DNA of 64,000 nt from Patescibacteria group bacterium (GCA_041650515.1 JBAZLA010000005.1:2034-66033); one strand, 5' to 3'. Shown: positions 2,436 to 47,890, numbered from the stretch's first letter. Numbers and translations are program-made. Notes: generated by a model not told the origin, from the sequence alone.

Positions 2436-2509
2436 TCGGGGATGCGGGACTTGAACCCGCGACCTCACGCACCCGAAGCGTGCGCGCTAGCCAACTGCGC
2501 TAATCCCCG
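2436..2509 (-). tRNA. tRNA-Pro (anticodon CGG)
   Basis: Manual fold of CGGGGATTAGCGCAGTTGGCTAGCGCGCACGCTTCGGGTGCGTGAGGTCGCGGGTTCAAGTCCCGCATCCCCGA: 7-bp acceptor, D-arm GCGC/GCGC, anticodon stem CACGC/GCGTG with loop TTCGGGT (CGG), T-arm GCGGG-TTCAAGT-CCCGC. Confidence 0.8.
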
Positions 2510-4855: not shown

Positions 4856-6499
4856 ATGCCAAAGTGTAAACATTGTCATCAAGACTTTACCATTGATCAG
4901 CAAGAGCAGCAGTTTTATCAAGAGATAAAAGTACCGACGCCGACCTTTTGTCCGGACTGTCGCCAACAGCGGCGTTTGGCTTGGACTAACGAGCTAACAT
5001 TATATAACCGGAAGTGCGATCTGACTGGCAAAAATGTTATCTCGATGTTCAATCCTGATGTGCCCTTTCCGGTTTATGATTTTCATGAGTGGTGGGGCGA
5101 CAAGTGGGACGCTGGTAAATATGGCGCTGACTATAATCCAGAGCAATCTTTTTTTGACCAATTTATTGCGCTAAAAAATCGCGTGCCCCACCCATCGCTG
5201 GAGGCTAATATCACTCTACAGAATAGCGACTATACTAACTACTGCGGTTATGCGGTTAATTGTTTTTTGATCTTTGATTCGGCTTATACTGAGAATTGTT
5301 ATTATGGTTATACACTAATCCGCTGCAAAGAGGCGGTGGACTGCATGAAGAGCCATGGCTGTGAATACTGTTATTATTGCTCCGATTGTACCAGCTGTTT
5401 CAAACTCAAGTATAGCCAGGACTGCAATAAATGCTCCGAAAGTTATTTCCTTAAATATTGTTCCGGTTGTAACAGTTGTTTTGGTTGTATCAATCTGCGA
5501 AACAAAAGTTATTGTTGGTTAAATAAACAGCTGACGCCGGAAGAATATAATAAGCGATTGGCAATGGTTGATTTTGGCAGTCGGGAAGTAGTGGCTAAAG
5601 TCAAAAGCAAGTTTGATGAATTTTGTCTACGTTATCCGCACATCGCCATTCACGGCATCAAAAACGAGGATTGCAGTGGCGATTATTTGAATAGCACCTT
5701 TCAGACTGTTGCTTCTTATGATTGCCGCGATGTTCAAAATTGCCGCTACTCTTATTCTATCAGTTTGGGCGGCAAGGATGTCTATGATGTGTTTCAATTC
5801 GGCGGCGAGAGCCAGATCTTGTATGAAAGCGTGGTTTCCGGCTATAAAAATTATAACTGCAAATTTTGCTATCAAAGCTATACCAGCGGCCAAAATCTGG
5901 AATATTGCTTCAATTGCCTTGGTTCTAAAAATTGTTTTGGCTGTGTTGGTCTGCGCAAAAGGGAATTTTGTATCCTTAATAAACAATATAGCGAGGCTGA
6001 GTATAACCGGTTAAAAGAAGAGATAATTGTCAAAATGACGGCCACTGGCGAGTACGGCGAGTTTTTACCGGCTTCAATGTCACACCATGGCTATAACGAA
6101 ACCAGCGCCATGTTTTATTATCCTTTAACTAAAGAGCAGGCAACAGCTCAAGGATTTTGGTGGTATGACAAAAAAGTAACTGCGCCGGCGGTTAGTAAAA
6201 TAGTGCCGGATAATATTAAGGAAGTTCCTGACGCAATCACTAGCGATGTTTTTGTTTGTAGTTGTGGCAAGTCTTACCGGGTTACCACCCAGGAGTTAAA
6301 ATTTTATCGTGCTTTTAGTATCCCAGTGCCCGAAAAGTGCTATATTTGTCGTCATGTTGACCGGCTGTTCCAACGTAATCCGCAGCATCTTTGGGAACGT
6401 AGCTGTAGTAAGTGCGGTCGGGCGATGCAGACAACTTATGCTCCAGAGCGGCCGGAAATCGTCTATTGTAAAAAGTGTTTTCAAGATGATGTTTATTGA
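4856..6499 (+). CDS. large cysteine-rich protein, paralog 1 (twin terminal zinc-ribbon-like motifs, C-x2-C repeat core); function unknown
   Basis: 547 aa with >40 Cys. N-terminal CKHC..FY..VP.P.FCPDCRQQRR and C-terminal CSCGK..FYRAF.IPVPEKCYICRH motifs. Internal repeats NCFGC(I/V)(N/G)LR...C(W/I)LNKQ. Paralogous to 6897-8579 and 43278-44951. Confidence 0.7.
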   Translation: MPKCKHCHQDFTIDQQEQQFYQEIKVPTPTFCPDCRQQRRLAWTNELTLYNRKCDLTGKNVISMFNPDVPFPVYDFHEWWGDKWDAGKYGADYNPEQSFFDQFIALKNRVPHPSLEANITLQNSDYTNYCGYAVNCFLIFDSAYTENCYYGYTLIRCKEAVDCMKSHGCEYCYYCSDCTSCFKLKYSQDCNKCSESYFLKYCSGCNSCFGCINLRNKSYCWLNKQLTPEEYNKRLAMVDFGSREVVAKVKSKFDEFCLRYPHIAIHGIKNEDCSGDYLNSTFQTVASYDCRDVQNCRYSYSISLGGKDVYDVFQFGGESQILYESVVSGYKNYNCKFCYQSYTSGQNLEYCFNCLGSKNCFGCVGLRKREFCILNKQYSEAEYNRLKEEIIVKMTATGEYGEFLPASMSHHGYNETSAMFYYPLTKEQATAQGFWWYDKKVTAPAVSKIVPDNIKEVPDAITSDVFVCSCGKSYRVTTQELKFYRAFSIPVPEKCYICRHVDRLFQRNPQHLWERSCSKCGRAMQTTYAPERPEIVYCKKCFQDDVY

Positions 6500-6533
6500 C
6501 CTAAGTTAGCGGTCGTGGTTAACTATAATTAGT

Positions 6534-6860
6534 ATGAGAAATAGCCGAGAAATGGGTTTGGGCCCTGAGATAGTCAAAGGGCCAGAAACCCGCGAAAATA
6601 AGCAATTTGAGGCCTTAAAACAAGAGATTTTAGGGGAGATTAAGGCTGGTCAAATTAAGAATTTAGAAGGCATTGATCGTTATACTCGGGACTATTGGGC
6701 TAGGACGCCGGATAGTGGTAATCTGCCCGAGCTTTTGGAACGCGCTTGGCGCGATAAAGAGATTGGTTTAGCTTTGGGTCGCAAGAACGAAGCGGAGGTT
6801 GATTGGCTACCGCCAGCAACCAGAGTTGAAGTGGATAAGGGTTTGTCAGTGGCAGCGTAG
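6534..6860 (+). CDS. hypothetical protein (108 aa) between the two Cys-rich paralogs
   Basis: ORF with a charged, non-repetitive sequence, locally GC-richer than its flanks. No known motif. Confidence 0.4.
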   Translation: MRNSREMGLGPEIVKGPETRENKQFEALKQEILGEIKAGQIKNLEGIDRYTRDYWARTPDSGNLPELLERAWRDKEIGLALGRKNEAEVDWLPPATRVEVDKGLSVAA

Positions 6861-6896
6861 ATAATTTTAGATTTTTGACTTTAGAACATAGTTTTT

Positions 6897-8579
6897 ATGC
6901 CTCAATGTAAAAATTGCGGCCAGGAATTTATTATCACCGAACAAGATCGGTCTTTTTATAATCGGATTAATGTACCGGAACCGCAAATTTGTTGGGCTTG
7001 CCGGCGGCAACGGCGGCTAGCTTGGCGCAACGAGCGGGTGTTGTATCGGCGCAAGTGTGATTTGTGTCAAACAGAGATGGTTTCGCTGTATCCAGAAAAC
7101 AATCCCACGCCGATTTATTGTCATGAATGTTGGTGGAGTGATAAATGGGGTGGCGCTGATTATGCTCAAGATTTTGATTTTTCCCAACCGTTTTTTGAGC
7201 AGTTTAGCCAGTTAATCAAAAATGTGCCGCGCTTAACTATTATTAATAGCAAAGGTATCAATAGTGATTTTTGTAATTATTCTTACGCCAACAAGAATTG
7301 TTACCTAACTATTGGCTGTCATTATGAAGAAGATTGTTTTTATAATGATCACAGTACCAAGAACCATTCTTGTTTAGAATTAGCTCGTTCGATAAACTGT
7401 GAGTTGTCTTGCAATTGTGTTGATAGCGCAAAATGTTATCAATGTAGCTACTTAGATTTTTGTAAGGAATGTAATAACTGTCATTTTTGCTACAACTGTT
7501 CTGGTTGCCATGATTGTTTTTTGTCTAGCGACCAGTTAAACCAAAAATACGTTTTTAAAAATAAACAATTAACTCCTCATAATTATCAGCAAACAGTCGG
7601 TGATTATTTGAGTGGTAGTTACCAACAGTTTGAACGAGCTCAGCAAGAGTATTTAGAAATTGTTAAAAATACGATTAAAAAATATACCCACCAAGTTTAT
7701 TGTGTTGATTGTGTTGGCGACGATTTGGTTAATTGCAAAAATTTGCGTTATTGTTTTGATGCCACTGGTTGTGCTGATTGCGCTTATGGCGTGCAAATGG
7801 ATGAGCAATATGATTCACGGGATAACGATTATATGGGTTATGATCGGTCAGAAGTTTGTTTGGAGACGATTGGCTGTTCGGGGGTTTTTAATTGCTATTT
7901 TTGTGATTCTTGTTGGCATGATCATCATTTGCAATACTCTAATCTAGCTTTTGGCTCTAATGACTGTTTTGGTTGTGTGGGGATAAAAAACCAGAAATAT
8001 TGTATTTTAAATAAACAATATTCCGAAGATGAATACAAAAAATTATTATCCAAAGTTATTGATCATCTTAAGAAAACAGGGGAGTATGGCTGGTTTTTCC
8101 CCCTTGGTCTTTCACCCTATGGTTATAATGCCACGGTTAATATGGAACCGTATAACCAACCCCTAAACAAAGTGGAGGTCTCTGAGCTTGGTAGCTGGTG
8201 GCAAGAGAATACACCGGGTACTTTTGGCAAGGAAACCATCAACCAATTGCCTGATAATATTGGCGAAGTCGGTGATAATATTATTAAAGAGATTTTAGCC
8301 TGCGCTAATTGTCATAAAAATTTTAAAATCATTACCCAAGAATTGGAGCTTTATAAAAAATTAAATCTACCCTTGCCGCGACTTTGTCCGGATTGCCGTT
8401 ATTTTGCTAGGATCAAGCGGCGGCAGCCACGTCAGTTGTATTTGCGTCAGTGTATGTGTTCTAAAAATCATCAGTGGCATCAGGGGAAAAGTTGTCCTAA
8501 TAAATTTGAAACGGTCTACTCGCCAACTGGCGCGGAGCAACTTTATTGCGCTGAATGTTATCGACAGGAAACCTATTAA
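6897..8579 (+). CDS. large cysteine-rich protein, paralog 2; function unknown
   Basis: 560 aa with the same architecture as 4856-6499: MPQCKNCGQEF...CWACRRQRRLAWRNE at the N-terminus and CANCHKNFKIITQELELYKKLNLPLPRLCPDCRY at the C-terminus, plus the conserved TGEYGWFFP...SPYGYNAT block. Confidence 0.7.
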   Translation: MPQCKNCGQEFIITEQDRSFYNRINVPEPQICWACRRQRRLAWRNERVLYRRKCDLCQTEMVSLYPENNPTPIYCHECWWSDKWGGADYAQDFDFSQPFFEQFSQLIKNVPRLTIINSKGINSDFCNYSYANKNCYLTIGCHYEEDCFYNDHSTKNHSCLELARSINCELSCNCVDSAKCYQCSYLDFCKECNNCHFCYNCSGCHDCFLSSDQLNQKYVFKNKQLTPHNYQQTVGDYLSGSYQQFERAQQEYLEIVKNTIKKYTHQVYCVDCVGDDLVNCKNLRYCFDATGCADCAYGVQMDEQYDSRDNDYMGYDRSEVCLETIGCSGVFNCYFCDSCWHDHHLQYSNLAFGSNDCFGCVGIKNQKYCILNKQYSEDEYKKLLSKVIDHLKKTGEYGWFFPLGLSPYGYNATVNMEPYNQPLNKVEVSELGSWWQENTPGTFGKETINQLPDNIGEVGDNIIKEILACANCHKNFKIITQELELYKKLNLPLPRLCPDCRYFARIKRRQPRQLYLRQCMCSKNHQWHQGKSCPNKFETVYSPTGAEQLYCAECYRQETY

Positions 8580-8687: not shown

Positions 8688-8766
8688 GTGAAAATAAATA
8701 GCTGTCTAATTGACGGCTATTTTTAGTTGTGCTAATTTTGGATATCAACCAAGGAGGGATTATTAG

Positions 8767-9086: not shown

Positions 9087-9650
9087 ATGAGTCAACGCGT
9101 CTTTATCGCTTTAAACTTACCCGCGACGGTTAAAAATGAGCTGGGCGGTGTAATTTTACAGTTGCAAAAGCAGCTGTCTGGTCAGCCAATTAAGTGGGTC
9201 GACCCGCCGATTTTACACCTGACTTTGCACTTTTTAGGTGAAATAGACGATCAAACTTTAGCCGAAGTTGCCAAATTATTGACAGTAGAAATAGCTAAAT
9301 ACCCCGTGCTTAGTTTAGCGCTGGGTAAACTTGGTTGTTTTACTTTGCCTAATGGTTCACCTCGAGTAATCTGGGTAGAATTAAACGAGGTTGGTGGTGA
9401 AAGTTTGCGTCAGCTGCAGAGCGCTCTTAAAAAAGGGTTAGAAGATTTAGGATTAGAAACCGATCACCGGTCTTGGCAGACTCATATTACTCTGGGGCGG
9501 GTTAAAGATGAGACTAGATTTTCTTTACCGTCAGTAAAAATTGCACCACTTAATTTTTTGGTTGAAACGATTGATCTGATGAAAAGCGAACTGCAGCCAG
9601 GTGGTCCGATCTATACGTCGCTAGAGAAATTTAATTTAAAAAAAGAATGA
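9087..9650 (+). CDS. thpR: RNA 2',3'-cyclic phosphodiesterase (2H phosphoesterase, ThpR/LigT family)
   Basis: Two H-x-T/S-x motifs: HLTLHFLG and HITLGR. ~187 aa, typical ThpR size. Confidence 0.8.
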   Translation: MSQRVFIALNLPATVKNELGGVILQLQKQLSGQPIKWVDPPILHLTLHFLGEIDDQTLAEVAKLLTVEIAKYPVLSLALGKLGCFTLPNGSPRVIWVELNEVGGESLRQLQSALKKGLEDLGLETDHRSWQTHITLGRVKDETRFSLPSVKIAPLNFLVETIDLMKSELQPGGPIYTSLEKFNLKKE

Positions 9651-10849
9651 AGATTAGTATTTTAGGTGTTAACATCGATAGCTTAAGCTGGTCCGAGGTC
9701 TTAGCCCGGGTTCAAAGTTTTTTGGTTTCGCCAGGCCGATATACTATTGTAACGCCCAATCCGGAATTTATTGTTTTGGCGCAGCGTGACGAAAAATTCA
9801 AACATGTTTTAAATTCAGCCAGTCTGGCTGTGCCCGATGGTGTTGGTTTGGTGCTGGCGTCTTATTTACTGGGTAATAGAATCAATCGGCGCATCGCTGG
9901 TGTTGACCTGGTAGAAAAAATTTGTCAGTTGGCAGCATATAATAATAAGTCGATTTATTTCTTGGGCGGACAAGCTGGAGTCGGAGAAAAAGCGGCGACA
10001 GTATTGCAGCAAAAATTTCCTAAATTAAAGATTGCTGGTGTTAATTCAAATTTAATTATTCCAGCTCAGGGTCAGGCCGCTGATTATCAAAATCAAGCGG
10101 TTATTGATCGGGTCAATCAAGCGCAGCCTGATATTTTGCTGGTAGCTTTAGGCCAGGGCAAACAGGAAAAATGGATCTATCATAATTTAAGTAAGTTGCC
10201 GTCGGTTAAAATTGCCATGGGCGTGGGCGGCAGTTTAGATTTTATTTCTGGCATTGTCAAACGAGCGCCAGTACTTTGGCGACGATTGGGTCTTGAATGG
10301 CTTTGGCGGCTATTTACTCAGCCATGGCGTCTGGGCCGGATTTGGCGGGCCACAGTTTATTTTAGTTATTTAGTAATCAGATTTAGATTCCAGCAGCCGT
10401 GGCGGCGACGTAATGTTTGCGGTTTTATTTATAATAACGAGGGCAAAGTTTTTGTCGCCGAGCGAGTTGGTTCGCAAGATCATTGGCAATTACCCCAAGG
10501 GGGAGTAGACAAAGGTGAGACACCACAGCAAGCGATTATCAGAGAGTTAGCCGAGGAGCTAGGTACAGATAAATTTGAAATTAAACGGCGGTGTCATTTG
10601 ACGGTTTGTTATAATTTTTCTGATGCTAAACTTTTTAGCTCCGTTTATGGTCCTTATCCCGGTCAAAAACAGTCAATTTTTATCCTAAAATTCGTTGGTG
10701 AAAATGTAGATTTTCATTTAGATAAAGATGTTTTTACCGCTTGGCAGTGGGTGGCGCCGGAGCAACTATTAGATAAGTTACATTATTATCGTCGTCCAGT
10801 CGCTGATATTGCTTTAACTGAGCTTAGGGAGCTAAATAAATCCTTGTAA
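9647..10849 (+). CDS. fusion protein: WecB/TagA/CpsF-family glycosyltransferase (N-terminal ~240 aa) + NUDIX hydrolase (C-terminal ~150 aa)
   Basis: The TagA-like region (VPDGVGLV, EWLWRLFTQPWRLGRIWRATVYF) runs in-frame into a Nudix box, GGVDKGETPQQAIIRELAEELG. Confidence 0.75.
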   Translation: MKISILGVNIDSLSWSEVLARVQSFLVSPGRYTIVTPNPEFIVLAQRDEKFKHVLNSASLAVPDGVGLVLASYLLGNRINRRIAGVDLVEKICQLAAYNNKSIYFLGGQAGVGEKAATVLQQKFPKLKIAGVNSNLIIPAQGQAADYQNQAVIDRVNQAQPDILLVALGQGKQEKWIYHNLSKLPSVKIAMGVGGSLDFISGIVKRAPVLWRRLGLEWLWRLFTQPWRLGRIWRATVYFSYLVIRFRFQQPWRRRNVCGFIYNNEGKVFVAERVGSQDHWQLPQGGVDKGETPQQAIIRELAEELGTDKFEIKRRCHLTVCYNFSDAKLFSSVYGPYPGQKQSIFILKFVGENVDFHLDKDVFTAWQWVAPEQLLDKLHYYRRPVADIALTELRELNKSL

Positions 10850-39386: not shown

Positions 39387-41243
39387 TTAGGGATAAATTT
39401 CGATTTGGCGATCAATTAATAAGTCAGTTTGGTAAGCTTTTTCTGAGTTATCCAATTTTACTCTAATATTTAGTTTGTGTCCAATTGTGCCTGCCTGCTT
39501 TTGGACTAAAAGACTATATATTCCTTGGTTAGCTAAATCCACTAATTTTGTTGGCAATAAATACTCTAAATTAACTGTTTTAGTCTTACCTGGTTCGACA
39601 GTAATCAAGCCACCAAAGACTGTTTTATCTAGCTCATCGTAGTGGTCTAGATCTTGGAGGTCAGAGCTGAGTAGTTGGCTGCCGAGTGGTGTGTAGATGC
39701 GGGTATAAGTTTTTAGTTGGGAAGTGCGGTAATCCCGAGTGCCATGGTGGGTATAAGTTATCGTCAGTTTGGTTTTTAATTGGTCATTTATTTTTTCAAC
39801 TTGGTAATCAATCGCTCGATCCACCACACGGTCAGTTTTTAAGCTTGCCATATTAGAGTCGATAATCATCAAATAATCCTCAGTGGTGACCTTGGCTATT
39901 TCCCCGCCCCAGCCGTTGACCAGATAAAAGTTTTCAATAAATTTATTAGTGTCATAGAGGAGAATATGTTTTTCTTGTAAGTTGGAATCAATGGTTTCCA
40001 AAATAAGCGGCCATTGTCTAGCGGGCAATTCTTTAACTTTACTGATTAGCTGGTTGGCTAGTTCGCTGACTATTCCTTTGCGGGCAAAAACCGGCGTTGT
40101 TTTTTGGGCATAGCCAATTTCTACTTCGTATTGTAATTGATCAAGTAGATTATCTGGCGTAAAAGTCAGACCTTGAACGTTTAAATCGCCGATGTTACTC
40201 AAGATATCCGAAATAAACTGGGGGTCAATAGCAATGACGCCATCGATTGATTCTTGGCCGCCTTCTTGCTGATAAAACCAGATAATTTTTTCAGCGGTTA
40301 TTGGAAAATCCGGTGACCAGTTAGCGTCGCGGAGATACCAGTTCTTATTTAAATATTTTTTAATTGGCATCGGCGGTTCTACCCTAAGATATCCTTCAGT
40401 CGGGCCATCAAGAGCATAAATATCGTCGGTCCAAAATTCTTTAATTTCGCCGTTTTTGATTTTGAGAATGCCGTAAGTCCCAATAAAACCGCCGGTTGGT
40501 CTTAGCTCGGTATTATTTTGGAGAATAAATAGATAAGTCTTTTCCTGGGCGTAACCAGCTAAATAAGGGAAAATTTGGCTTAATGGTATGCCTTGATCGG
40601 TAATTTTATTGAGCAGTGGCAAGTATACTTTAATCAGTTCGGTTGCCTCTTGGAGCGGTCCGATCAAACCGGTTGGTGGTATTTTTTCTAGAGAAAGGGT
40701 GGCTAGATCAATCTCGGCCTGGGCGCCCTGTAAAAGCGGCGGGGCTTCAAAAAAACGTTTGAGGAAATATTCTTTTTGTTCTGGTGTTAGATCATTAATT
40801 GATGCGCCTTGATCTTGTAATGGCCGCCAAACATCTGCGGCGAAATTGGTAATTTCTTCTAGCGAGGTTGAGAGATTGCCGCCAATCGACAATAGATAGT
40901 CAGCTGCCTCAATCTGCTGGCCAATCTTAGGTAGCCATTTAATCTCTAATAGCTGGTTGGTAAATTGTTTAGCCAGGCTAAAATTATTTTTAGCGGCATT
41001 TAAATTAGCCGCGGTTTGAGTCAAATCTCCGGCCCGAAAGTTGTTTTGCGCCAATTCTAAATTTTGCTTTGCTTCCAGGGTCAGTTGATAGACATTATAG
41101 CCAGCCACAGCATATTTTATTCCCCAGATTAGACCGAGAAAAAATAAAAAGATTATTAGGTAGATACCAATCTTGAGCCAGCTAATTTTTTGATGTTCGG
41201 TTTTGTTAAACATGCAGTATTTATTAACGTGGTAGTTTGGCAC
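39387..41243 (-). CDS. DUF4012-domain membrane-anchored protein
   Basis: N-terminal TM helix, then a ~580-aa extracytoplasmic region with a TELRPTGGFIGTYG motif. Recalled from memory as DUF4012; not checked against a database. Confidence 0.55.
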   Translation of the reverse strand: MPNYHVNKYCMFNKTEHQKISWLKIGIYLIIFLFFLGLIWGIKYAVAGYNVYQLTLEAKQNLELAQNNFRAGDLTQTAANLNAAKNNFSLAKQFTNQLLEIKWLPKIGQQIEAADYLLSIGGNLSTSLEEITNFAADVWRPLQDQGASINDLTPEQKEYFLKRFFEAPPLLQGAQAEIDLATLSLEKIPPTGLIGPLQEATELIKVYLPLLNKITDQGIPLSQIFPYLAGYAQEKTYLFILQNNTELRPTGGFIGTYGILKIKNGEIKEFWTDDIYALDGPTEGYLRVEPPMPIKKYLNKNWYLRDANWSPDFPITAEKIIWFYQQEGGQESIDGVIAIDPQFISDILSNIGDLNVQGLTFTPDNLLDQLQYEVEIGYAQKTTPVFARKGIVSELANQLISKVKELPARQWPLILETIDSNLQEKHILLYDTNKFIENFYLVNGWGGEIAKVTTEDYLMIIDSNMASLKTDRVVDRAIDYQVEKINDQLKTKLTITYTHHGTRDYRTSQLKTYTRIYTPLGSQLLSSDLQDLDHYDELDKTVFGGLITVEPGKTKTVNLEYLLPTKLVDLANQGIYSLLVQKQAGTIGHKLNIRVKLDNSEKAYQTDLLIDRQIEIYP

Positions 41244-42024
41244 CTAGGTATTTGGCAAAATATTTTAGCCAGCTTTTAATATGTTCGCGACTAGTTTTAT
41301 TAATAAAACCCCAAATCCAGGATGTTTCGGCGGATGATCGTTGGTGGTAGTGGACTACTTCAGCATCGGCGAAATAGACCACCCGGTAGTCGTTTTCCCA
41401 AAAACGGCGGCAGTAGTCAACATCCTCGAAATACATAAAAAATCTTTCGTCAAAGAGACCAATTTTGTCCATCGCTGCTTTGCGAATAAACAAACAACCA
41501 CCCAGGAGCCAATCCACTTCCCTATTTTCTTTATGGTCCCAGTCCATCATCAAATATTTATAAACTAGATTGCGAGCGAACGGCAGTTTACCTAAGAAAG
41601 TGCGACGATAAAAGGGCATCATAAAAGTTGGGAAACGATAGCAGGAATATTGCATCGTGCCGTCAGGATTAATCAGTTTTGGTCCAACAATCCCCACTTC
41701 GGGCCGGCCATCCATGTAAACAATTATTTTATCTATTTCATTAGTTAAAATAGCAATATCTGGGTTGAGTGTTAGAATATAGCGGCCGGTAGCTTTTTTT
41801 AATGCTAAATTATTGCCACCGGCGTAGCCTAGGTTTTTTGGTGATTGAATAAATTTAATTTCTGGAAAGTCCTTTTTTATCATTTCGCCGCAACTGTCGC
41901 TAGGGTTATTATCAGTAACGATGACTTCGTAGTCTAATTTTAGATTCAAAAGTCGGATGCCCTTGAGGCACTGGCGGAGTAAACCCTTACTTTTATAATT
42001 TAAGATGACGATTGAGAGGTCCAT
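41224..42024 (-). CDS. glycosyltransferase family 2
   Basis: LSIVILNYKS..., DNNPSD (DxD-like) and GT-A fold motifs. Confidence 0.8.
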   Translation of the reverse strand: MDLSIVILNYKSKGLLRQCLKGIRLLNLKLDYEVIVTDNNPSDSCGEMIKKDFPEIKFIQSPKNLGYAGGNNLALKKATGRYILTLNPDIAILTNEIDKIIVYMDGRPEVGIVGPKLINPDGTMQYSCYRFPTFMMPFYRRTFLGKLPFARNLVYKYLMMDWDHKENREVDWLLGGCLFIRKAAMDKIGLFDERFFMYFEDVDYCRRFWENDYRVVYFADAEVVHYHQRSSAETSWIWGFINKTSREHIKSWLKYFAKYLGAKLPR

Positions 42025-42079
42025 AATAATAGTTGAAAGTTGTCGACTTTACGAATTTTATAACTTTATAACTTGTTAC

Positions 42080-43132
42080 TTACTTAAACCATTGTCTTAT
42101 TGCTTGGTTATTAATTTGACGCATTTTTTTGACTTGTTTTCGTTTAACTAGAGTTTGAGGTATAAATTTTAGACCCTTGATTAACATTTTTAGAGTGGCG
42201 GTTTCTAATATTAACACATAACCAATTTTTTTCAATTCATAGCCTAATATCCAAGGTAAATTGATAAAAAAATTACTCAATGATTCGTTTTTTAATAAAG
42301 TTAACCAATGGTTGCGATATGATAGTCGGTTAACAAATTTAGATTTGCGTCGTCGTTCTTTAATAGTTTTAAAATTATTGGCTCGGGCGCTGCCAAAACC
42401 ACTACGGTAGTGGTAGGCTTCAGCCGTCGGGACATATAATGCCGGATAGCCGGCTAACTGCAATCGCCAGGCTAAATCAACGTCATCCTTATACATAAAG
42501 AAATTTTCATCCAGATATTCATAATATTCCGCATCTTGACTCAGTTGAGATGATTTTTGGGGCCGCGCGATTTTGATTTTAGTTGCGGCTAGGGCCGTTC
42601 GACGATAAAGAACTAGATTACCCGAAATGCCAAAAACCGATTCGGTCTTAGAGTATTGACCCTTATCTTGTTCGCCTGCTCCTCGATCATAGAAACGGCG
42701 TGATTTAGTAGCAGCGATTCCTGCCGAGTCAATAATCTCTGGCTTGAGCGAGATATTATGGTCTTCTTGGAGACTAATTTTAAAGGTTTTACCGCCAAAA
42801 CTGCCAGCTTGGGGGTTTTGGTCGGCGATTTTAACTAGATTTTCCAAAAATGGCGTCGCTAGGACAACATCTTGGTTACAAAGCAAAATATATTCACTGT
42901 CCCAAAATTTGATTGCTTGATTATTAGATTTACAAAAACCTAAGTTTTTAAAATTTTGTAGGATGGTCACTTCCGGATAATTGGCTTTGATAAATTCTGT
43001 CGTTCCATCGTCTGAGGCATTATCCACGATTAGAACTTTAAAATCTTTAAAGGTTTGACTAAAGATTGATTTTAAACAGTCCTCAATATAACGACGGCCG
43101 TTCCAAGTGATGATGTTGATGGATACTTTCAT
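42080..43132 (-). CDS. glycosyltransferase family 2
   Basis: VSINIITWNGRRYIEDCLKSI...VDNASDDGT GT-A signature. Confidence 0.8.
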   Translation of the reverse strand: MKVSINIITWNGRRYIEDCLKSIFSQTFKDFKVLIVDNASDDGTTEFIKANYPEVTILQNFKNLGFCKSNNQAIKFWDSEYILLCNQDVVLATPFLENLVKIADQNPQAGSFGGKTFKISLQEDHNISLKPEIIDSAGIAATKSRRFYDRGAGEQDKGQYSKTESVFGISGNLVLYRRTALAATKIKIARPQKSSQLSQDAEYYEYLDENFFMYKDDVDLAWRLQLAGYPALYVPTAEAYHYRSGFGSARANNFKTIKERRRKSKFVNRLSYRNHWLTLLKNESLSNFFINLPWILGYELKKIGYVLILETATLKMLIKGLKFIPQTLVKRKQVKKMRQINNQAIRQWFK

Positions 43133-43277
43133 AGGGAGGATAGAAAATTATTGATTGCAGTTTTGACAGGTAGACATATTTAGATAGTATGCGGGGCGCG
43201 GTATGCAGTATGCAGGAATTAAATGCCACAACTAATGGGAATTAAACCCTGCATACTACATACTATGACCTGCATAC

Positions 43278-44942
43278 TTAATAAATCTCCTTCTGGTAAC
43301 ACTCCTCGCAGTAGACTTTCTCCTCGCGGTCCGGAGCATAGGTGGTTTCGAATTTATTCTTGCAGCCAGGGTTCATGCAGGTGCGGTTATAAAGCCTACG
43401 TGGGTTGCGGAGCTTCATCCTCGCCAGACGTCGACATTCAAAACATTTTTTTGGCAAAGGATAATTGTTCTTCTTATAAAAATCTAGCTCTTGCGCGATG
43501 ATTTTATAATTTTTGTGGCAATTCTCGCAGGCTAAAATTTCTTGGGTAATATCTGCCAAAATTTCTTTAATGTCGTCTGATAGTTGCTCCAGTCTGATTG
43601 TCTCTTTACCGTAAGTCCCTGGCAAATTATCTTGCCACGACCAACCTTTAGCTAAGGTTTGTTCTTTAGTTAATGGGAACCATAGTTGCGCTATGGTTTC
43701 ATTATAACCAAAGGGACTATGATTAATGGGGAAAAATTCACCATATTCGCCAGTGCTTTTCATTTTATCAATTATTTTGTCTCTTAATTGTTTATATTCC
43801 TGTTCTTTATATTTTTTATTCAAAATACAGAATTCTCTTTTCCGCAAACCAACGGAACCAAAACTGTCCTTAGTACTATAGCATTCAATACAATAATTTA
43901 GATTAGCAACTTTTCTGATACAATTGTAACTAAATAATACTCTATTAGTATCCTCACCGATCATTGCTCCTTCGTAGACCAATTCTGCATTCAAACCAAA
44001 CTGGTAAACGTCGAAACAATCTTTAGATTTGTATGACAATTGGCTGCAATATCCGGAGCTCTCTATTTCGCTACAATCAAAACATGACTGGACGTTAAAA
44101 CTATTATATAAATAATTGCCTGAAGAATTTTGGACTTTATTGCTTTGAGCATAACGCCAGATATGGTTTTTTTGTAATTTTAAATATTTATCCCAAATTT
44201 CTTTAATCTGCCGGTGTGAACCAATATTAGTCTCTTTCAATTTTTCTTGGTAATCTTTCTCGCTTAATTGTTTATTTAGAAAACAATAATTCTTCTGTCG
44301 CAAGCCAACACATAGAAAGCAGTCGTTGCAACCGGCGCAATCTCGTAAAAAGTAACTATTGGCACACTTAATACAGTCTTGACTCCAAGCTAAATGATAA
44401 CAGTCATGAATATCAACACATTCATAACAAAGTTCAGAGTCAAAACAATTATAAATATCCATCGAGTCTTTTGATTTTTTTACTCCATAACCATAATAGC
44501 AATCTTCGTTATAATCGGCGTGAAAAAGCATATAACAGTTTTTATCCAAACCGGCGTGGTGAGTGTAATCACTATTGATGCTTCTACTATCACCACTGAC
44601 ACATTGGTGCGGCACGATTAGATCCAATTCGTGAATTTGCCCTAGAATGGAGCGAGAAAAATCTATTTCTTTACCGTAATTCAATGGTTCCCAACTATCC
44701 TCCCACCAACATTGCAAGCAATAAACCTTACGGGGGTTATTCGAAGAAAATTCACTAATAATACTCTTGCTGCATAAATCACATTTACGGGGATACAAAA
44801 TACCTTCATTGCACCAAGCCATGCGGCGCATTTCGCGGCACGGCGGACACCAAGTTGGCTCGGGCACATCTATCCGTTGATAAAATTCCTTATCCTGTGG
44901 ATAGATGGTAAACTCTTTTTGGCAGTTTTTACAATTAGGCAT
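43278..44942 (-). CDS. large cysteine-rich protein, paralog 3; function unknown
   Basis: Same twin zinc-ribbon + Cys-repeat architecture (MPNCKNCQKEF...CPPCREMRRMAW at the N-terminus; CENCHKNYKIIAQELDFYKKNNYPLPKKCFECRR at the C-terminus; TGEYGEFFP...SPFGYNET block). The ORF is open to 44951 (MIIMPNC); the start was placed at MPNC by analogy with the paralogs. Confidence 0.7.
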   Translation of the reverse strand: MPNCKNCQKEFTIYPQDKEFYQRIDVPEPTWCPPCREMRRMAWCNEGILYPRKCDLCSKSIISEFSSNNPRKVYCLQCWWEDSWEPLNYGKEIDFSRSILGQIHELDLIVPHQCVSGDSRSINSDYTHHAGLDKNCYMLFHADYNEDCYYGYGVKKSKDSMDIYNCFDSELCYECVDIHDCYHLAWSQDCIKCANSYFLRDCAGCNDCFLCVGLRQKNYCFLNKQLSEKDYQEKLKETNIGSHRQIKEIWDKYLKLQKNHIWRYAQSNKVQNSSGNYLYNSFNVQSCFDCSEIESSGYCSQLSYKSKDCFDVYQFGLNAELVYEGAMIGEDTNRVLFSYNCIRKVANLNYCIECYSTKDSFGSVGLRKREFCILNKKYKEQEYKQLRDKIIDKMKSTGEYGEFFPINHSPFGYNETIAQLWFPLTKEQTLAKGWSWQDNLPGTYGKETIRLEQLSDDIKEILADITQEILACENCHKNYKIIAQELDFYKKNNYPLPKKCFECRRLARMKLRNPRRLYNRTCMNPGCKNKFETTYAPDREEKVYCEECYQKEIY

Positions 44943-44949
44943 AATAATC

Positions 44950-44995
44950 AATTACGAATTACGAATTAATAACTAGATGAGCTAAATTCGTAATT
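44950..44995. repeat. AATTACGAATTACGAATTAAT tandem motif with downstream inverted copy (aattcgtaatt)
   Basis: Immediately upstream of the paralog-3 start. The inverted copy at 44985-44995 could form a stem-loop. Confidence 0.4.
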
Positions 44996-46505
44996 ATTCT
45001 TTGCTCCCCTCTTTTGGCGTGACCCAAAATCCGAGCCTAAATTTGCCGCCCAGCATTAGCCGGGTTTGGGCTTCGGTTGCTGGTATTGAGCCAAATACAA
45101 CCAGGGTTACTGGCAGCAGGATCCATTGGAGTAGCATGACCAAAATTTTGTGTTTAGCAATTTTATGAGGGCGGGCTGGCAATAAAGCCAGGCTCAGAAT
45201 AGCCGAAACTAAGATACCAAACATGGCGATCATCATTAAAATCTCCAGAACAAAAGGGGCATTTTGAGTGATCACCGTTGCTTTATCCGAACCTTTAGCC
45301 AGCCAAAGTGGCAATCGACCGAGAATAAAAATTAATATTGGTACGGTTGCCCAAGAGTACATTCCTTCGCCCAAATTCCAAATATAGTGAACCCGTTTTC
45401 TAAAAGGAATTAGTTTCCTTTTTTGGCGAAAATGCCACATCATATAGGGCATGTGTTCAACGCCCCAGGCCCAGCGGCGCTGTTGTTTATAAAGACTCTT
45501 AACGCCTTGCCACCAACTGTGGCCGCCAACAGTATTCATTGAGACCGGGACAAATATAGGTGTCACTGAGTATTTACCATTATAGTGGATAAAACCCTGT
45601 AGAAAGATTCTTGAGTCTTCGGTCACAATGTCTTTTTCCCAAAAACCAACATCCACCAGCATCTGCCAGCTCATCGAATGAGAAGAAAAGGTAAAAAGTC
45701 GTTCGGGTCGCATCAGATCAGTCATCAGCCAAAAAGTGGTGCCAAAGGCCGCCACCCGGATTACTGGGTCAGACTCCCACATGTTGTTATTATATAGGGC
45801 AATTGGTTGGTAGCTGGTTTTGGTCGGCTCGGGATGAGTGAGATATTTATAAGCCACGCAGGCAAAATATTGCGGATGGACACAGGTATCAATATCAAAA
45901 GAAGAAACAATAATATTTTCGTAGGGTATCTTTAGCTCCTCGTCGATTATTTTTTTAATCTGCCAACCAGCATAATTAATATTGGCGCCTTTGCCTGGAA
46001 TTTCGTCGGGCAAGTTTTGAGGGTGGGTAGTGACCAGTAGTTTTAGAAAACGGTGGCCATATTTTTCTTGAATCACGGCGGCTTTTTGTAAAAAGTCTTC
46101 TTTACCAGCACGCTCTTCGCCGGCTAATACCACGATAAATTTATCCAGCGGGTAGATATTTTGCGTTAAACCATCAAAGGTATTTTCCATTACTACTAAT
46201 GATTCTTTAACCATCGGCAAAAAAACAACATGATAGATTTTTCCCCAATCAGGTAGGGTTTTAACTTGTTGAAGCCAGTCGATCTTGATATCCTGACGGA
46301 ACTGTCGCCACGATAAAGCAATATAAAAGATAAAATAAGAAACACGAAAAACCCAGTATAAATCAAAAACGATGATAAAATAGATAACCCAAAGTGGCCG
46401 AACAAAAGAAAAAATGATTGCCAAAACAAAAGTCGCCCAAGTTAGGGTGGCCGGAACAGTCTCTAAAAAACGATAATATTTCCCCTTTTTGTCGGTTAGC
46501 TGCAT
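44994..46505 (-). CDS. membrane-embedded processive family-2 glycosyltransferase (cellulose/chitin-synthase-like, QxxRW)
   Basis: N- and C-terminal TM bundles flank a GT-A domain with D,D,D and QQRRWAWG motifs. Confidence 0.7.
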   Translation of the reverse strand: MQLTDKKGKYYRFLETVPATLTWATFVLAIIFSFVRPLWVIYFIIVFDLYWVFRVSYFIFYIALSWRQFRQDIKIDWLQQVKTLPDWGKIYHVVFLPMVKESLVVMENTFDGLTQNIYPLDKFIVVLAGEERAGKEDFLQKAAVIQEKYGHRFLKLLVTTHPQNLPDEIPGKGANINYAGWQIKKIIDEELKIPYENIIVSSFDIDTCVHPQYFACVAYKYLTHPEPTKTSYQPIALYNNNMWESDPVIRVAAFGTTFWLMTDLMRPERLFTFSSHSMSWQMLVDVGFWEKDIVTEDSRIFLQGFIHYNGKYSVTPIFVPVSMNTVGGHSWWQGVKSLYKQQRRWAWGVEHMPYMMWHFRQKRKLIPFRKRVHYIWNLGEGMYSWATVPILIFILGRLPLWLAKGSDKATVITQNAPFVLEILMMIAMFGILVSAILSLALLPARPHKIAKHKILVMLLQWILLPVTLVVFGSIPATEAQTRLMLGGKFRLGFWVTPKEGSKE

Positions 46506-46849: not shown

Positions 46850-47890
46850 TTGATTGCTATGTTAAAGTGTAGGTGTATGAAAGAAGCCGCATTTTATTCT
46901 TCAAAAGATAGTAGCAAGATCCAGTGCCAACTCTGCAATCATTATTGTTTAATTGGGCCAGATAAAACCGGAATTTGTAGGACTAGACAGAACAAGAGTG
47001 GTGTTTTATATTCTTTGATTTATGATAAAGTTTTTCACGGTCAGGTTGATCCGATTGAGAAAAAGCCGTTGTTTCATTTTCTACCCGGTAGCTATACCTA
47101 TGGCGTTTCAACCGTTGGTTGTAATTTTCGTTGTCAGCAGTGTTTGAATTGGTCTTTGTCCCAAGCTGATGGTCGGTCGGTAGCTATTTTGCCTGATGTT
47201 AGGCCAGAGGTTATTGTTCGTCAAGCTCAATTGGCAAATTGTCAGTCCATCTCTTTTACCTATAACGAACCGACTTTAAATACTGAATATAATTATGAGG
47301 TGATGCAATTAGCTCATCAGCAGGGATTAAAAAATGTTTGGGTTAGCAATGGTTATATGACGGCTGAAGTTTTAAAATATTTAGCGCCAGCTTTGGATGC
47401 TGTTAATATTGATCTCAAGGCTTTTACTCAAAAATATTATAAGACCGTCTGTCAGGCTAGGTTGCAGCCAATATTAGAGAATTTAAAATTGATTAAAAAA
47501 CTAAATATTTGGCTAGAGGTTACTACCCTGATAATTCCCACTCTTAATGATTCTGTTGCCGAGTTGAAAGCAATCGCCAAGTTTATCTTTAAAGAACTGG
47601 GTACCGATACGCCCTGGCACGTTTCCAAATTTTCACCTAAAATCTCTTGGCGTCTTCAACATTTATCACCAACATCAGAAGCTAAGATAAAAGAAGCCTA
47701 CCAGATTGGTAAGCAGGCGGGTTTAAAATATGTTTATGGTGGTAATGTCCAGAACACTCAATTGGAAAATACCTATTGCTCAGTTTGCAATCAATTGACG
47801 ATTAAGCGGGGTTTTTATAATCTAGAGCGGCAAGATATTAATGGTTGTTGCCCTAAATGTGGTAGCGGTTTAGACTTGATATTAGGCTAG
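46850..47890 (+). CDS. amrS: AmmeMemoRadiSam system radical SAM enzyme
   Basis: N-terminal Cys-rich lead-in (CQLCNHYC), radical SAM cluster motif CNFRCQQC and an AmrS-like C-terminus. The real start is probably Met10 (MKEAAFY, 46877). Confidence 0.85.
   Translation: MIAMLKCRCMKEAAFYSSKDSSKIQCQLCNHYCLIGPDKTGICRTRQNKSGVLYSLIYDKVFHGQVDPIEKKPLFHFLPGSYTYGVSTVGCNFRCQQCLNWSLSQADGRSVAILPDVRPEVIVRQAQLANCQSISFTYNEPTLNTEYNYEVMQLAHQQGLKNVWVSNGYMTAEVLKYLAPALDAVNIDLKAFTQKYYKTVCQARLQPILENLKLIKKLNIWLEVTTLIIPTLNDSVAELKAIAKFIFKELGTDTPWHVSKFSPKISWRLQHLSPTSEAKIKEAYQIGKQAGLKYVYGGNVQNTQLENTYCSVCNQLTIKRGFYNLERQDINGCCPKCGSGLDLILG

Follow-up and report, generated by a model that had tools for sequence, protein, structure and literature searches.

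A stretch of 64,000 nucleotides from a Patescibacteria group bacterium (GCA_041650515.1 JBAZLA010000005.1:2034-66033; hereafter the window, with positions counted from its first letter) encodes three related cysteine-rich proteins, here named ProtA, ProtB and ProtC. They belong to a large, almost entirely Patescibacterial family with a common layout: a pair of zinc fingers, two beta-solenoid repeats of ~150 aa, a mid block of ~70 aa, and a copy of the finger pair. In other genomes, genes of this family form arrays, lie next to genes for VirD4-like ATPases and, in some loci, are interleaved with grpE, dnaK and dnaJ. One possibility, to which we give a probability of about 0.45, is that these are non-enzymatic binding proteins, which could serve as the adaptors or holdases of a protein-handling machine made of Hsp70 and VirD4-like ATPases, or could be its diversified clients.

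Three Full-Length Paralogs With a Duplicated Layout

A scan for open reading frames (ORFs) recovered the genes where the initial annotation had placed them: ProtA at 4856-6499 (+, 547 aa), ProtB at 6897-8579 (+, 560 aa), a 108-aa ORF in between at 6534-6860, and a third copy at 43278-44951 (-), whose 557 aa are counted from a TTG. The true start of this third copy, ProtC, is likely the ATG at 44942, which would give a protein of 554 aa opening with MPNCK. The three proteins align end to end with 35-42% identity, beyond the terminal modules too, and are all full-length paralogs, as had been proposed; their similarity is far above chance, since mutual BLAST E-values range from 1e-143 to 1e-159. 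At NCBI, ProtA (MFA5076498.1) and ProtB are labeled "zinc-ribbon domain containing protein" because terminal fingers match zf_Tbcl, zf_Tbcl_2 and TIGR04272, and ProtC, which is WC480_03940 (100%), is labeled hypothetical. The contig of origin measures 127,914 bp, and the locus tags of this genome bear the prefix WC480.

The internal organization was resolved by profile-profile comparison (hhalign), built on an alignment of 85 family sequences, with residues in this comparison numbered according to ProtC. The first finger of the N-terminal pair, ZnR-a(N) (1-52), resembles ZnR-a(C) (466-515, compared as 466-520) with a probability of 99.2% (E=3e-19), which bears out the proposal that the C-terminus repeats the N-terminal module. 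The second finger, which had gone unnoticed, is duplicated too, ZnR-b(N) (53-95, compared as 50-95) resembling ZnR-b(C) (516-554) with a probability of 97.5%. The near-repeats noticed in the core reflect a true internal duplication, solenoid A (96-240) being similar to solenoid B (241-395) with a probability of 99.8% (E=2e-30), and the mid block (396-465) has no internal counterpart. These results show that the family layout is a finger pair, two solenoid repeats, a mid block and a copy of the finger pair.

Structure prediction with AlphaFold2 (AF2) gave a predicted local distance difference test score (pLDDT) of 86.6 and a predicted template modeling score (pTM) of 0.88 for ProtC, and of 88.4 and 0.88 for ProtA. 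The two models are complementary, each solenoid half being confident in one of them: in ProtC, repeat B reaches a pLDDT of 85-98 and repeat A just 54-63; in ProtA, repeat A reaches 86-98, with strands predicted at residues 128-197, and residues 300-360 of repeat B are at 61-67. The parts of the three proteins are as follows.

4856..6499, +, ProtA, family member (ORF; alignment; zf_Tbcl 29.8 bits; AF2 pLDDT 88.4, pTM 0.88)
4856..5011, +, ProtA ZnR-a(N), treble-clef finger C4/C7/C32/C35 followed by an Arg-rich helix CRQQRR (PF13451 match, residues 3-40)
5012..5140, +, ProtA ZnR-b(N), degenerate second finger (alignment; fold still predicted, pLDDT >=90)
5141..5575, +, ProtA beta-solenoid repeat A with a period-3 Cys ladder, terminus CSGCNSCFGCINLRNKSYCWLNKQLTPEEY (hhalign; AF2; Cys periodicity)
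5576..6040, +, ProtA beta-solenoid repeat B, where the family varies most (hhalign; conservation profile; AF2)
6041..6238, +, ProtA mid block TGEYGEFLP...GYNET...PLTKEQ (among the best-conserved segments of the family)
6239..6496, +, ProtA C-terminal finger pair ZnR-a(C) and ZnR-b(C) (hhalign, each finger with its N-terminal counterpart; PF23477/TIGR04272 below cut-off; LIM profile match)
6897..8579, +, ProtB, family member with all four finger sites intact (ORF; Pfam; alignment)
6897-7052, +, ProtB ZnR-a(N)
7053-7181, +, ProtB ZnR-b(N)
7182-7613, +, ProtB solenoid A
7614-8072, +, ProtB solenoid B
8073-8282, +, ProtB mid block
8283-8432, +, ProtB ZnR-a(C)
8433-8576, +, ProtB ZnR-b(C)
43281..44942, -, ProtC, solitary family member (ORF; alignment; AF2 pLDDT 86.6, pTM 0.88)
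44787-44942, -, ProtC ZnR-a(N)
44658-44786, -, ProtC ZnR-b(N)
44223-44657, -, ProtC solenoid A
43758-44222, -, ProtC solenoid B
43548-43757, -, ProtC mid block
43398-43547, -, ProtC ZnR-a(C)
43281-43397, -, ProtC ZnR-b(C)

The initial annotation had described the family as unrecognized. This holds for the core and the mid block, which have no database relatives and occur in proteins annotated only as hypothetical or as "zinc-ribbon domain containing," and it does not hold for the terminal modules, which are already described as PF13451, PF23477 and TIGR04272. PF13451 (zf_Tbcl; gathering threshold 24 bits) matches ProtA with 29.8 bits and ProtB with 25.2 bits over residues 3-40; ProtC, with the same four Cys present, stays slightly under the threshold at 22-22.9 bits, and 35 of the 85 family members match with E<0.01. 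For PF23477 (zf_Tbcl_2) and TIGR04272, with cut-offs of 27 and 36 bits, the scores are 23.2 and 21.3 for ProtA and 17.6 for ProtC, ProtB giving no match; at family level, 48/85 members match (best E=1.8e-9), and a paralog on another contig of the same metagenome-assembled genome (MAG), L084, is over the zf_Tbcl_2 threshold at 31.6 bits. The ZnR-b(C) finger of ProtA is both zf_Tbcl_2-like and LIM-like. As a profile, the C-terminal finger pair resembles finger 2 of LIM proteins (CRP1, 1b8t, E=2.4e-5; 1ctl, E=1.6e-4), and the N-terminal pair and the mid block retrieve nothing in PDB or Pfam.

The ~370-aa core and the mid block have no match in Pfam, NCBIfam, PHROGs, PADLOC or PDB sequences, apart from a weak similarity of the core to phrog_15341, a phage family of 276 aa. 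This match covers residues 129-221 of ProtA (window 5240-5518, E=3e-5) and recurs in the homologous regions of ProtB and ProtC, spanning both repeats in the latter. A follow-up tblastn search of 50,697 phage records gave no match.

The best-conserved regions are the fingers and the segment GLR..CILNKQYS..EY...TGEYGEFFP...GYNET; the solenoid coils vary most, above all those of repeat B. The TGEYGEF block, which had been called invariant, is strongly conserved only: ProtB reads TGEYGWFFP...GYNAT and ProtA SHHGYNET. Arg residues after the second knuckle of both ZnR-a fingers are invariant or near-invariant (R36, R39, R40; R504, R508, R512, R515). The family has a median isoelectric point (pI) of 6.3 and a median net charge of -5, and with this pI the idea of DNA mimicry by a strongly acidic solenoid is unsupported. 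As initially noted, no signal peptide or transmembrane (TM) helix is present in the window copies, the maximal 19-residue hydropathy being 0.7-0.9 (family median 0.9). The family proteins open straight into the zinc finger (MPxCKxC) and display neither the signal peptide nor the membrane anchor of a secreted or surface protein.

Terminal Metal Sites and a Core Cysteine Ladder

ProtA, ProtB and ProtC contain 41, 48 and 39 Cys (7.0-8.6% of residues), and each has 14-19 CxxC motifs. More than 40 Cys had been attributed to the core; this number corresponds in fact to the whole-protein totals, the core itself holding 28, 31 and 22. The behavior of individual positions was followed in an alignment of 199 full-length paralogs taken from the retrieved loci.

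The terminal sets are retained or lost jointly (phi 0.68-1.0) and thus behave as genuine metal sites. C4, C7, C32 and C35 are kept in 96-99% of the 199 paralogs, and C522, C527, C545 and C548 in 97-99%. In ZnR-b(N), C57, C75 and C78 follow an all-or-none pattern (phi ~1.0), being present in 45% of paralogs and lost together in 55%, and in ZnR-a(C), C475, C500 and C503 are present in 67% (phi 0.68-0.98). About one third of the paralogs exchange the Cys of ZnR-a(C), for example HPDERH for CPxCRH, and keep the FY, PxP and RNPR motifs. ProtA is among the losers of the second N-terminal finger: it retains C54 only, the equivalents of C57, C75 and C78 being T, D and E. The N-terminal consensus ending in CDLC proposed initially does not apply to ProtA, which reads CDLT and has lost three of the four Cys of this finger. 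Likewise, the C-x2-C spacing proposed for the C-terminal module fails at one point in ProtA, where the first knuckle of ZnR-a(C) is CSC (CxC; window 6260-6275, residues ~468-470).

The Cys of the solenoid core behave differently. Their columns are 25-97% occupied and vary independently (phi <=0.4); they follow a strict period of 3, with autocorrelation peaks at lags 3, 6, 9 and 12; and they exchange with Ser, Val, Leu, Ile and Ala, the number of core Cys ranging from 12 to 35 per paralog. This independent variation, together with the period and the Ser, Val and Leu exchanges, points to an inward stacking ladder instead of obligate Zn or Fe-S ligands, and the core Cys are probably stacking residues rather than cluster ligands. 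A run of CxxCxxCxxC (C202-C211) and the positions C363 and C372 are 82-97% conserved, and the highly conserved C205, C208, C363 and C372 could form one further candidate site. An Fe-S or multi-Zn core was rejected on the basis of Cys covariation, periodicity and substitution pattern; neither Fer4 nor rubredoxin is matched, and the core Cys are not co-conserved. The initial description of a cytoplasmic metal binder is therefore upheld for the four terminal Cys4 sets and not for the core. It had also been stated that the spacing could not be matched to DnaJ cysteine-rich domains, ferredoxins, rubredoxins or known zinc-finger repeats, and indeed no match to the DnaJ cysteine-rich domain, ferredoxins or rubredoxins was found in Pfam and NCBIfam scans of the window copies or of the 85 members.

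An Old and Widespread Family Arranged in Arrays

ProtC matches 3,767 proteins in a word-indexed search. When a profile of the core only, devoid of fingers, is compared with 1.84 billion cluster representatives, 3,450 matches are obtained at E<=1e-3, each being a cluster at 50% identity, of which 1,553 reach E<=1e-30; a length of 550-595 aa and the same position of the core are common to nearly all. A scan of GTDB with one genome per species yields at least 581 loci, almost all in Patescibacteria, and these include two MAGs labeled Pseudomonadota and Gammaproteobacteria. Two samples of loci are analyzed below, and the percentages given describe these samples, not Patescibacteria as a whole: 80 family-seeded loci (79 counted), chosen as the most ProtC-like among the at least 581, and 80 ATPase-seeded loci, chosen for their similarity to one short ATPase. 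Their ORFs were called with a simple ORF finder (table 11), so that lineages recoding UGA may appear fragmented. The 79 best loci come from Peregrinibacteria, Peribacteria, Gracilibacteria, Nomurabacteria, Paceibacteria, Staskawicz-, Harrison-, Lipton- and Abawacabacteria, and also from Minisyncoccia and from MAGs labeled "Saccharibacteria." The family is mainly found in episymbiotic members of the candidate phyla radiation (CPR), with a few copies in MAGs of predatory lineages. ProtC is its most conserved subtype, with orthologs of 57-63% identity in Falkowbacteria, Peregrinibacteria and Gracilibacteria, and single ProtC-like copies of ~50% identity in Bdellovibrionota/Oligoflexia MAGs.

Arrays are typical, 243 family ORFs being found in 83 loci, and a single strand carries every copy in 62 of the 63 multi-copy loci. 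Locus L036 packs up to nine copies into 14 kb, an 845-kb scaffold (L085) carries at least ten, and L169 has at least five. Two other genes are interspersed in the L085 array, one for CutA1 (divalent-cation tolerance; L085:4387-4692) and one for a 59-aa HTH_17 protein (L085:9766-9945). For 90% of members the nearest relative is in another genome (median identity 55%), compared with a median of 43% within the array, and no within-array pair exceeds 70% identity. The arrays are therefore old, and recent tandem duplication of the arms-race type is ruled out by the same two observations.

VirD4-Like ATPases and TrmB-Like Regulators Accompany the Family in Many Lineages

Partners were searched for by clustering all non-family ORFs of the family-seeded loci. 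Two groups emerged. The first consists of TrmB-family winged helix-turn-helix (wHTH) proteins of ~255 aa, with 30 ORFs in 24/79 loci, often several per array; 23 of the 30 are at 300 bp or less from a family gene, and 21 of these 23 are divergently transcribed. The second consists of soluble P-loop ATPases of hexameric type resembling VirD4, TrwB and TraD, with 30 ORFs in 22/79 loci, of which 20 are at 300 bp or less from a family gene, all on the same strand and often with gaps of 4-20 bp. As Patescibacteria carry ~1.96 VirD4-like type IV coupling proteins (T4CPs) per genome (PMC12102498), ~1.8 such ORFs would be expected in the 0.93 Mb covered (Poisson P~1e-16). Three classes of partner ATPase can be distinguished.

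Short class, ~495 aa, no finger
Long class, ~690 aa, C-terminal extension with a zf_Tbcl_2 finger CxxCxKxTxVPFxPxxGRPVYCKxC (E=1e-14)
N-extended class, ~750 aa, with a ~330-aa N-terminal region giving no Pfam or NCBIfam match

The N-extended ATPases (L031:9375-11615, L010:10869-13124, L157:7074-9359 and others) are mainly seen in loci of the Peribacteria/Gracilibacteria type, usually at the downstream end of the array.

The association was reassessed in the opposite direction, using 80 independent metagenome loci seeded with the ATPase alignment, 66 of which had enough flank. Family genes are present in 51 of these 66 eligible loci (77%). In 30 loci, a family gene lies on the same strand at 400 bp or less from the ATPase, and 14/80 ATPase-seeded loci contain a cassette in which one to three family genes are enclosed between a long, finger-bearing ATPase and a short one. 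A distinct ATPase-adjacent subfamily was also looked for and is ruled out, only 1/17 nearest relatives being ATPase-adjacent as well.

The zf_Tbcl_2 finger of the long ATPase (49-54 bits) is the same module as the family caps. The long ATPase itself has at least 8,000 matches, the top 120 of which all carry PF10412 and PF23477, with 68-84% identity. Its end (L079:2854-4986, L166:10001-12088, P0272-P0391) runs from the finger through a disordered linker into a tail, EVPEDVLRKILE, that is nearly invariant (119/120). Family proteins contain a related acidic motif, LPDxIxDVxDDIL, directly before the C-terminal fingers; its Pro-containing form is present at this place in 28 of the 199 members and is otherwise absent from 107,000 residues. 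From this likeness, the ATPase tail EVPEDVLRKILE may mimic, or compete with, the acidic segment of the family.

The partner ATPases score above the gathering thresholds of PF10412, PF02534 and PF12696 and possess a Walker A motif GxxxxGK[ST], as do the nucleotide-binding domains of T4CPs. Against the NCBIfam models of TraD, VirD4 and CedD, all three classes obtain 40-57 bits, compared with curated cut-offs of 250-650, and most are devoid of a TM segment; their neighbors are family genes, DnaK and DnaJ, where a T4CP gene would adjoin a T4SS or relaxase. They are T4CP-like, not demonstrably T4CPs.

In Some Loci the Family Is Interleaved With the Hsp70 Operon

In genomes of the Paceibacteria type a recurring gene order is observed, GrpE-FAM-(PaaX-like regulator)-DnaK-ATPase(zf)-FAM-ATPase-DnaJ, where FAM stands for a family gene and zf for the finger-bearing ATPase. 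One such layout is that of locus L166, which reads GrpE-FAM-FAM-(PaaX-like wHTH, opposite strand)-DnaK-ATPase(zf)-FAM-FAM-ATPase(short)-DnaJ, and whose Hsp70 cassette lies directly 3' of the ribosomal-protein/rpoA cluster, as seen in the Pfam-annotated neighborhood of the long ATPase. The full pattern is found in L079, L103, L104, L106, L112, L114, L116, L121, L143 and L166. Overall, Hsp70-system genes stand in the same-strand run in 22/80 ATPase-seeded loci and 6/79 family-seeded loci, in addition to L166. Clustering of neighbors had yielded a DnaK ORF cluster in 9 loci, and its reading as chance synteny was overturned by the L166 operon and a re-scan of the loci. The initial annotation had argued for a dedicated, non-housekeeping role; stated in this way it is unsupported, as the family elsewhere sits in the grpE-dnaK-dnaJ operon beside conserved ATPases.

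The PaaX-like wHTH gene (179 aa; L166:7335-7874, -) has equivalents in ~13 loci and is divergent, immediately 5' of dnaK. In that position one might have expected HrcA or another heat-shock regulator.

The components of these loci diverge at different rates. Between the same genome pairs, median identity is 82.5% for DnaK, 83.7% for the short ATPase and ~68-72% for the long ATPase, whereas syntenic family genes share 38-42%, with no relation to ATPase divergence (r=0.07). These results point to a variable family payload flanked by conserved machinery. No account of the family, of its arrays or of the linkage between dnaK and T4CP-like genes was found in full-text literature searches.

Proposed Function and Alternatives

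The absence of any catalytic signature or cofactor motif leads us to consider the family as non-enzymatic binders. The finger caps and the mid block are candidate docking surfaces because they are the best-conserved parts, and the solenoid coils are candidate specificity surfaces because they diversify. In the mechanism that we propose, caps and mid block would dock the family proteins to conserved machinery, namely the finger-sharing ATPase and possibly DnaK/DnaJ, variable solenoid faces would give each paralog its own binding specificity, and the output of the machine could be refolding, disaggregation or export. The LIM-like finger common to the family and the long ATPase is the most concrete docking clue.

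Several observations weigh against this proposal. Function is read from gene order alone, and sharing a highly expressed operon is no proof that the products interact physically. Hsp70 genes are present in just 6/79 family-seeded loci, in a sample biased to Peribacteria/Peregrinibacteria; the exclusion of a distinct ATPase-adjacent subfamily goes in the same direction. The LIM likeness concerns one finger only, and Cys-rich composition may inflate its scores. In the window itself, no T4CP-like, TrmB-like, DnaK, DnaJ or GrpE gene is found within 64 kb, so that the function attributed to the three window copies is drawn from homology only; the closest relatives of the window (L168 of Falkowbacteria, L169 and L084) have tandem copies and no ATPase, TrmB-like or Hsp70 gene nearby. 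Solitary ProtC-type copies also exist in Gracilibacteria, in another Patescibacteria MAG and in a Bdellovibrionota MAG. These solitary or partnerless copies indicate that the family functions without adjacent partners.

A bolder version is that the Hsp70 system, genetically fused with two ring ATPases of the VirD4/FtsK-HerA type and a repertoire of zinc-finger-capped solenoids, constitutes an unrecognized protein-handling machine. We regard it as a doubtful possibility. The solenoids would be specificity adaptors or cargo and, in the boldest form, the still missing substrates of Patescibacteria's essential type IV secretion system (T4SS), unfolded by Hsp70 and delivered to hosts; alternatively, the whole could be a ClpB-independent disaggregase/holdase network. 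In that case, the long/short ATPase pair would account for the ~2 "orphan T4CPs" counted in each Patescibacterial genome.

That the family is simply the T4SS substrate repertoire, with the ATPases as true coupling proteins, DnaK/DnaJ/GrpE keeping the cargo competent for translocation and the solenoid binding host targets, appears rather unlikely to us. It would account for the lack of a Sec signal and TM helix, for the operonic association with VirD4/TraD-like ATPases, for the Arg-rich C-terminal helices, for a variable payload between conserved machinery genes, and for a distribution centered on episymbiotic CPR with a few copies in predatory-lineage MAGs. Furthermore, epibiotic growth depends on the Patescibacterial T4SS as an essential system, for which no substrates are known (PMC12857230; PMC12102498), and T4CPs devoid of a transmembrane domain (TMD) are a recognized class in monoderm systems, such as TraJ/TraI of pIP501 (PMC7431656). 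A VirB2-like T4SS pilin gene (L084:19038-19457; PF18895, E=1.5e-8) also lies ~7 kb from the tandem pair on the MAG's other contig, a linkage that is weak because polA and several unannotated ORFs intervene. However, the ATPases score far under every curated T4CP cut-off, are without TMD, and sit in the dnaK operon instead of near virB4. The published survey of Patescibacterial T4SS covered virB4 neighborhoods only; among the 5,713 VirD4-like T4CPs of 2,918 genomes, 148 are near virB4 and 97% are not, their role being left open, and t4cp is dispensable in Southlakia (PMC12102498). In addition, the C-terminus of the family is a tightly folded Cys4 finger with no disordered signal, and the paralog subfamilies are old and stable, with no rapid turnover.

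Less probable again is a redox or metal function, in which the thiols would bind Zn, Fe-S or other metals, or would serve as an Hsp33-like oxidation switch or thiol buffer passing clients to DnaK/DnaJ/GrpE. The zinc center of Hsp33 releases Zn on oxidation, and Hsp33 hands its clients to the DnaK system. The Cys content and CxxC number of the family, four Cys4 sites acting as true metal sites, the 82-97% conserved C202-C211 run with C363/C372, the place in the Hsp70 operon and the CutA1 gene inside one array would all fit. Such a function is hardly compatible with most core Cys columns being 25-80% occupied, independent and substituted by Ser, Val, Leu, Ile or Ala, with a core Cys number that varies from 12 to 35, or with the absence of ferredoxin, rubredoxin, DnaJ cysteine-rich or Hsp33 matches; two of the four finger sites can be missing, as they are in 33-55% of paralogs, and a storage or buffer role leaves up to ten old, divergent paralogs unexplained. 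We consider it improbable that the Arg-rich fingers bind DNA or RNA, the family working with VirD4/CedD-like ATPases as DNA translocases, for example in uptake or transfer. The near-invariant Arg after the second knuckles of ZnR-a, the matches of the ATPases to the TrwB "DNA-binding" and CedD DNA-translocase models, small zinc-ribbon phage proteins that match the finger fold, and the RNA/DNA enzymes near the window copies (RarA, pseudouridine synthase, LigT) speak for it, but the overall charge of the proteins is about neutral to slightly acidic (median pI 6.3, net charge -5), no recognized DNA- or RNA-binding domain is present, LIM, a finger that binds proteins, is the one solved structure to which they show significant similarity, and the dnaK-operon position points to protein substrates. 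The least probable alternatives are a structural polymer, assembled head to tail through the homologous end caps and serving a cytoskeletal or envelope role, and a variable sensor of an ATPase-based anti-phage system. Homologous modules at both ends, weak fold matches to bactofilin and curli, old and stable paralog sets such as are typical of complex subunits, and a weak resemblance of the ATPases to the mad8 and HerA defense components could be explained in this way. No sign of polymerization is seen, though, and a pTM of 0.88 suggests a compact monomer; PADLOC yields nothing for the family, no nuclease or other effector domain is present, and the arrays stand among housekeeping genes, not in defense islands or mobile elements.

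Relation to Known Systems and Significance

The adaptor, holdase or client role proposed above can be compared with several known systems. PF13451, PF23477 and TIGR04272 share a ~40-residue finger with the termini of the family; they are of unknown function, cover less than 25% of the protein, and are silent on the solenoid, the mid block, the mirrored caps, the arrays and the partners. In LIM scaffolds (CRP1/CSRP, 1b8t, 1ctl), finger 2 (W..C..C.K.LE.T...D.DGEIYC..CY) resembles ZnR-b of the family (W..C..C.K.I.TTY.PDRPE.VYCE.CY), and LIM fingers are docking modules between proteins, which suits a cap common to the family and the ATPase. However, the family lacks the double-finger unit and the His/Asp ligands, LIM proteins are eukaryotic, and with the LIM model (PF00412) only finger 2 aligns, 3/85 members matching with E>=0.002.

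Three Cys4-zinc partners of DnaK/Hsp70 are established, namely the cysteine-rich domain of DnaJ, the zinc center of Hsp33 and the zinc ribbon of Hep1/Zim17. The likeness of the family to them is the interleaving of its genes with grpE, dnaK and dnaJ, a link that comes from gene order only. Family proteins differ from them in architecture and size, and Pfam scans reveal no DnaJ_CXXCXGXG, Hsp33 or zf-DNL match; for the DnaJ domain (PF00684), there is no match with E<=1 in the window copies or with E<=0.01 in the 85 members, and no CxxCxGxG motif.

The partner ATPases match the TrwB_AAD_bind, T4SS-DNA_transf and TraG-D_C models, in addition to those of TraD, VirD4 and CedD, and in this resemble T4CPs such as TrwB/VirD4; they differ by the absence of a TMD, by a dnaK operon in place of virB4 or a relaxase, and by occurring as a long/short pair, the short one being as conserved as DnaK. 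In Legionella, DotL recruits substrates via the adaptors DotN, IcmS/W and LvgA, and DotN binds Zn. For a family of zinc-finger adaptors this is an analogy only, no homology to known adaptors or effectors being found. A different comparison is offered by the cysteine-rich multigene families of parasites, such as the variant-specific surface proteins of Giardia. These are CxxC-rich paralogs that are conserved at the ends and variable in between; their organism depends on a host and has a reduced genome, and they are secreted, membrane-anchored and expressed singly. These features, CxxC-rich paralogs, conserved ends around a variable middle and a host-dependent reduced genome, are shared by the family, which differs by the absence of signal and anchor, by old and stable subfamilies and by the absence of sequence similarity.

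Beta-solenoid folds provide further comparators, including insect antifreeze beta-helices (1m8n), left-handed beta-helix acyltransferases, gamma-carbonic anhydrases, curli CsgA and bactofilin. Membership in the hexapeptide-repeat group (left-handed beta-helix transferases, gamma-carbonic anhydrase) is supported neither by hidden Markov model matches nor by superposition. PADLOC returns no defense system for ProtA, ProtB or ProtC, and the ATPases show generic mad8/HerA similarity only.

Treble-clef fingers and beta-solenoids are known folds, and the sequences are already deposited as hypothetical proteins; the novelty lies at the level of the family and of the system. According to the predicted models, a cytoplasmic beta-solenoid with a Cys at every third residue of a ladder and homologous zinc-finger pairs at both ends would have no solved counterpart. 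The family amounts to thousands of sequence clusters and is a major "dark matter" family. Patescibacterial genomes are of ~1 Mb, yet some devote ~2% of theirs to one array of these genes. The present analysis links three unexplained items, the family itself, the ~5,700 VirD4-like ATPases (PMC12102498) and the universal Hsp70 operon. If this link is functional, it could correspond either to a new chaperone/ATPase system or to candidate cargo for the T4SS that epibionts need on their hosts, and both options can be tested with recombinant proteins, or in genetically tractable Saccharibacteria if these carry homologs.

Surroundings of the Window Copies

Between ProtA and ProtB lies one further ORF.

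6534..6860, +, 108-aa orphan ORF (WC480_03745, hypothetical; ORF scan)

It has no match in the Pfam, NCBIfam and PHROGs libraries, and one relative at >=90% identity in a collection of 15 billion proteins. A TATAAT-like hexamer is found 4 nt 5' of its ATG. A role as conserved partner is ruled out, no homolog being present among the 83 loci clustered; the ORF does not belong to the family and perhaps not to the system either. A terminator-like hairpin with an 11-bp stem is located at 8696-8722 (+), 117 nt 3' of the ProtB stop codon, which suggests that ProtA, the 108-aa ORF and ProtB may form a single transcription unit.

ProtA is divergent from an S4/pseudouridine-synthase gene, RarA/MgsA being upstream of it. 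On the other side, beyond ProtB and its 3' hairpin, come a small membrane ORF, then LigT and a fusion of WecG with NUDIX. This last ORF (9647-10849, +, 400 aa) combines in one protein a WecG/TagA/CpsF glycosyltransferase (residues 58-232 of the ORF, E=2e-57) and a NUDIX hydrolase (residues 253-382, E=5e-20).

The same MAG contains at least five family copies, the three of the window and the tandem pair on the other contig (L084). In the closest relatives, the pairs and arrays sit among housekeeping genes, as seen for the Falkowbacteria pair (L168), the L169 array and the second contig of the MAG. ProtC is placed in a same-strand run of family 2 glycosyltransferase (GT2) genes (41224-46505, -), where the gene upstream of it encodes a 503-aa membrane GT2-like protein and the downstream side holds two GT2 genes. 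This context is absent from the ProtC orthologs examined (L001, L003, L004, L168). A radical-SAM gene (46850-47890, +) is divergent from the ProtC/GT2 run, and the sole tRNA gene of the window is a tRNA-Pro(CGG) at 2436-2509 (-).

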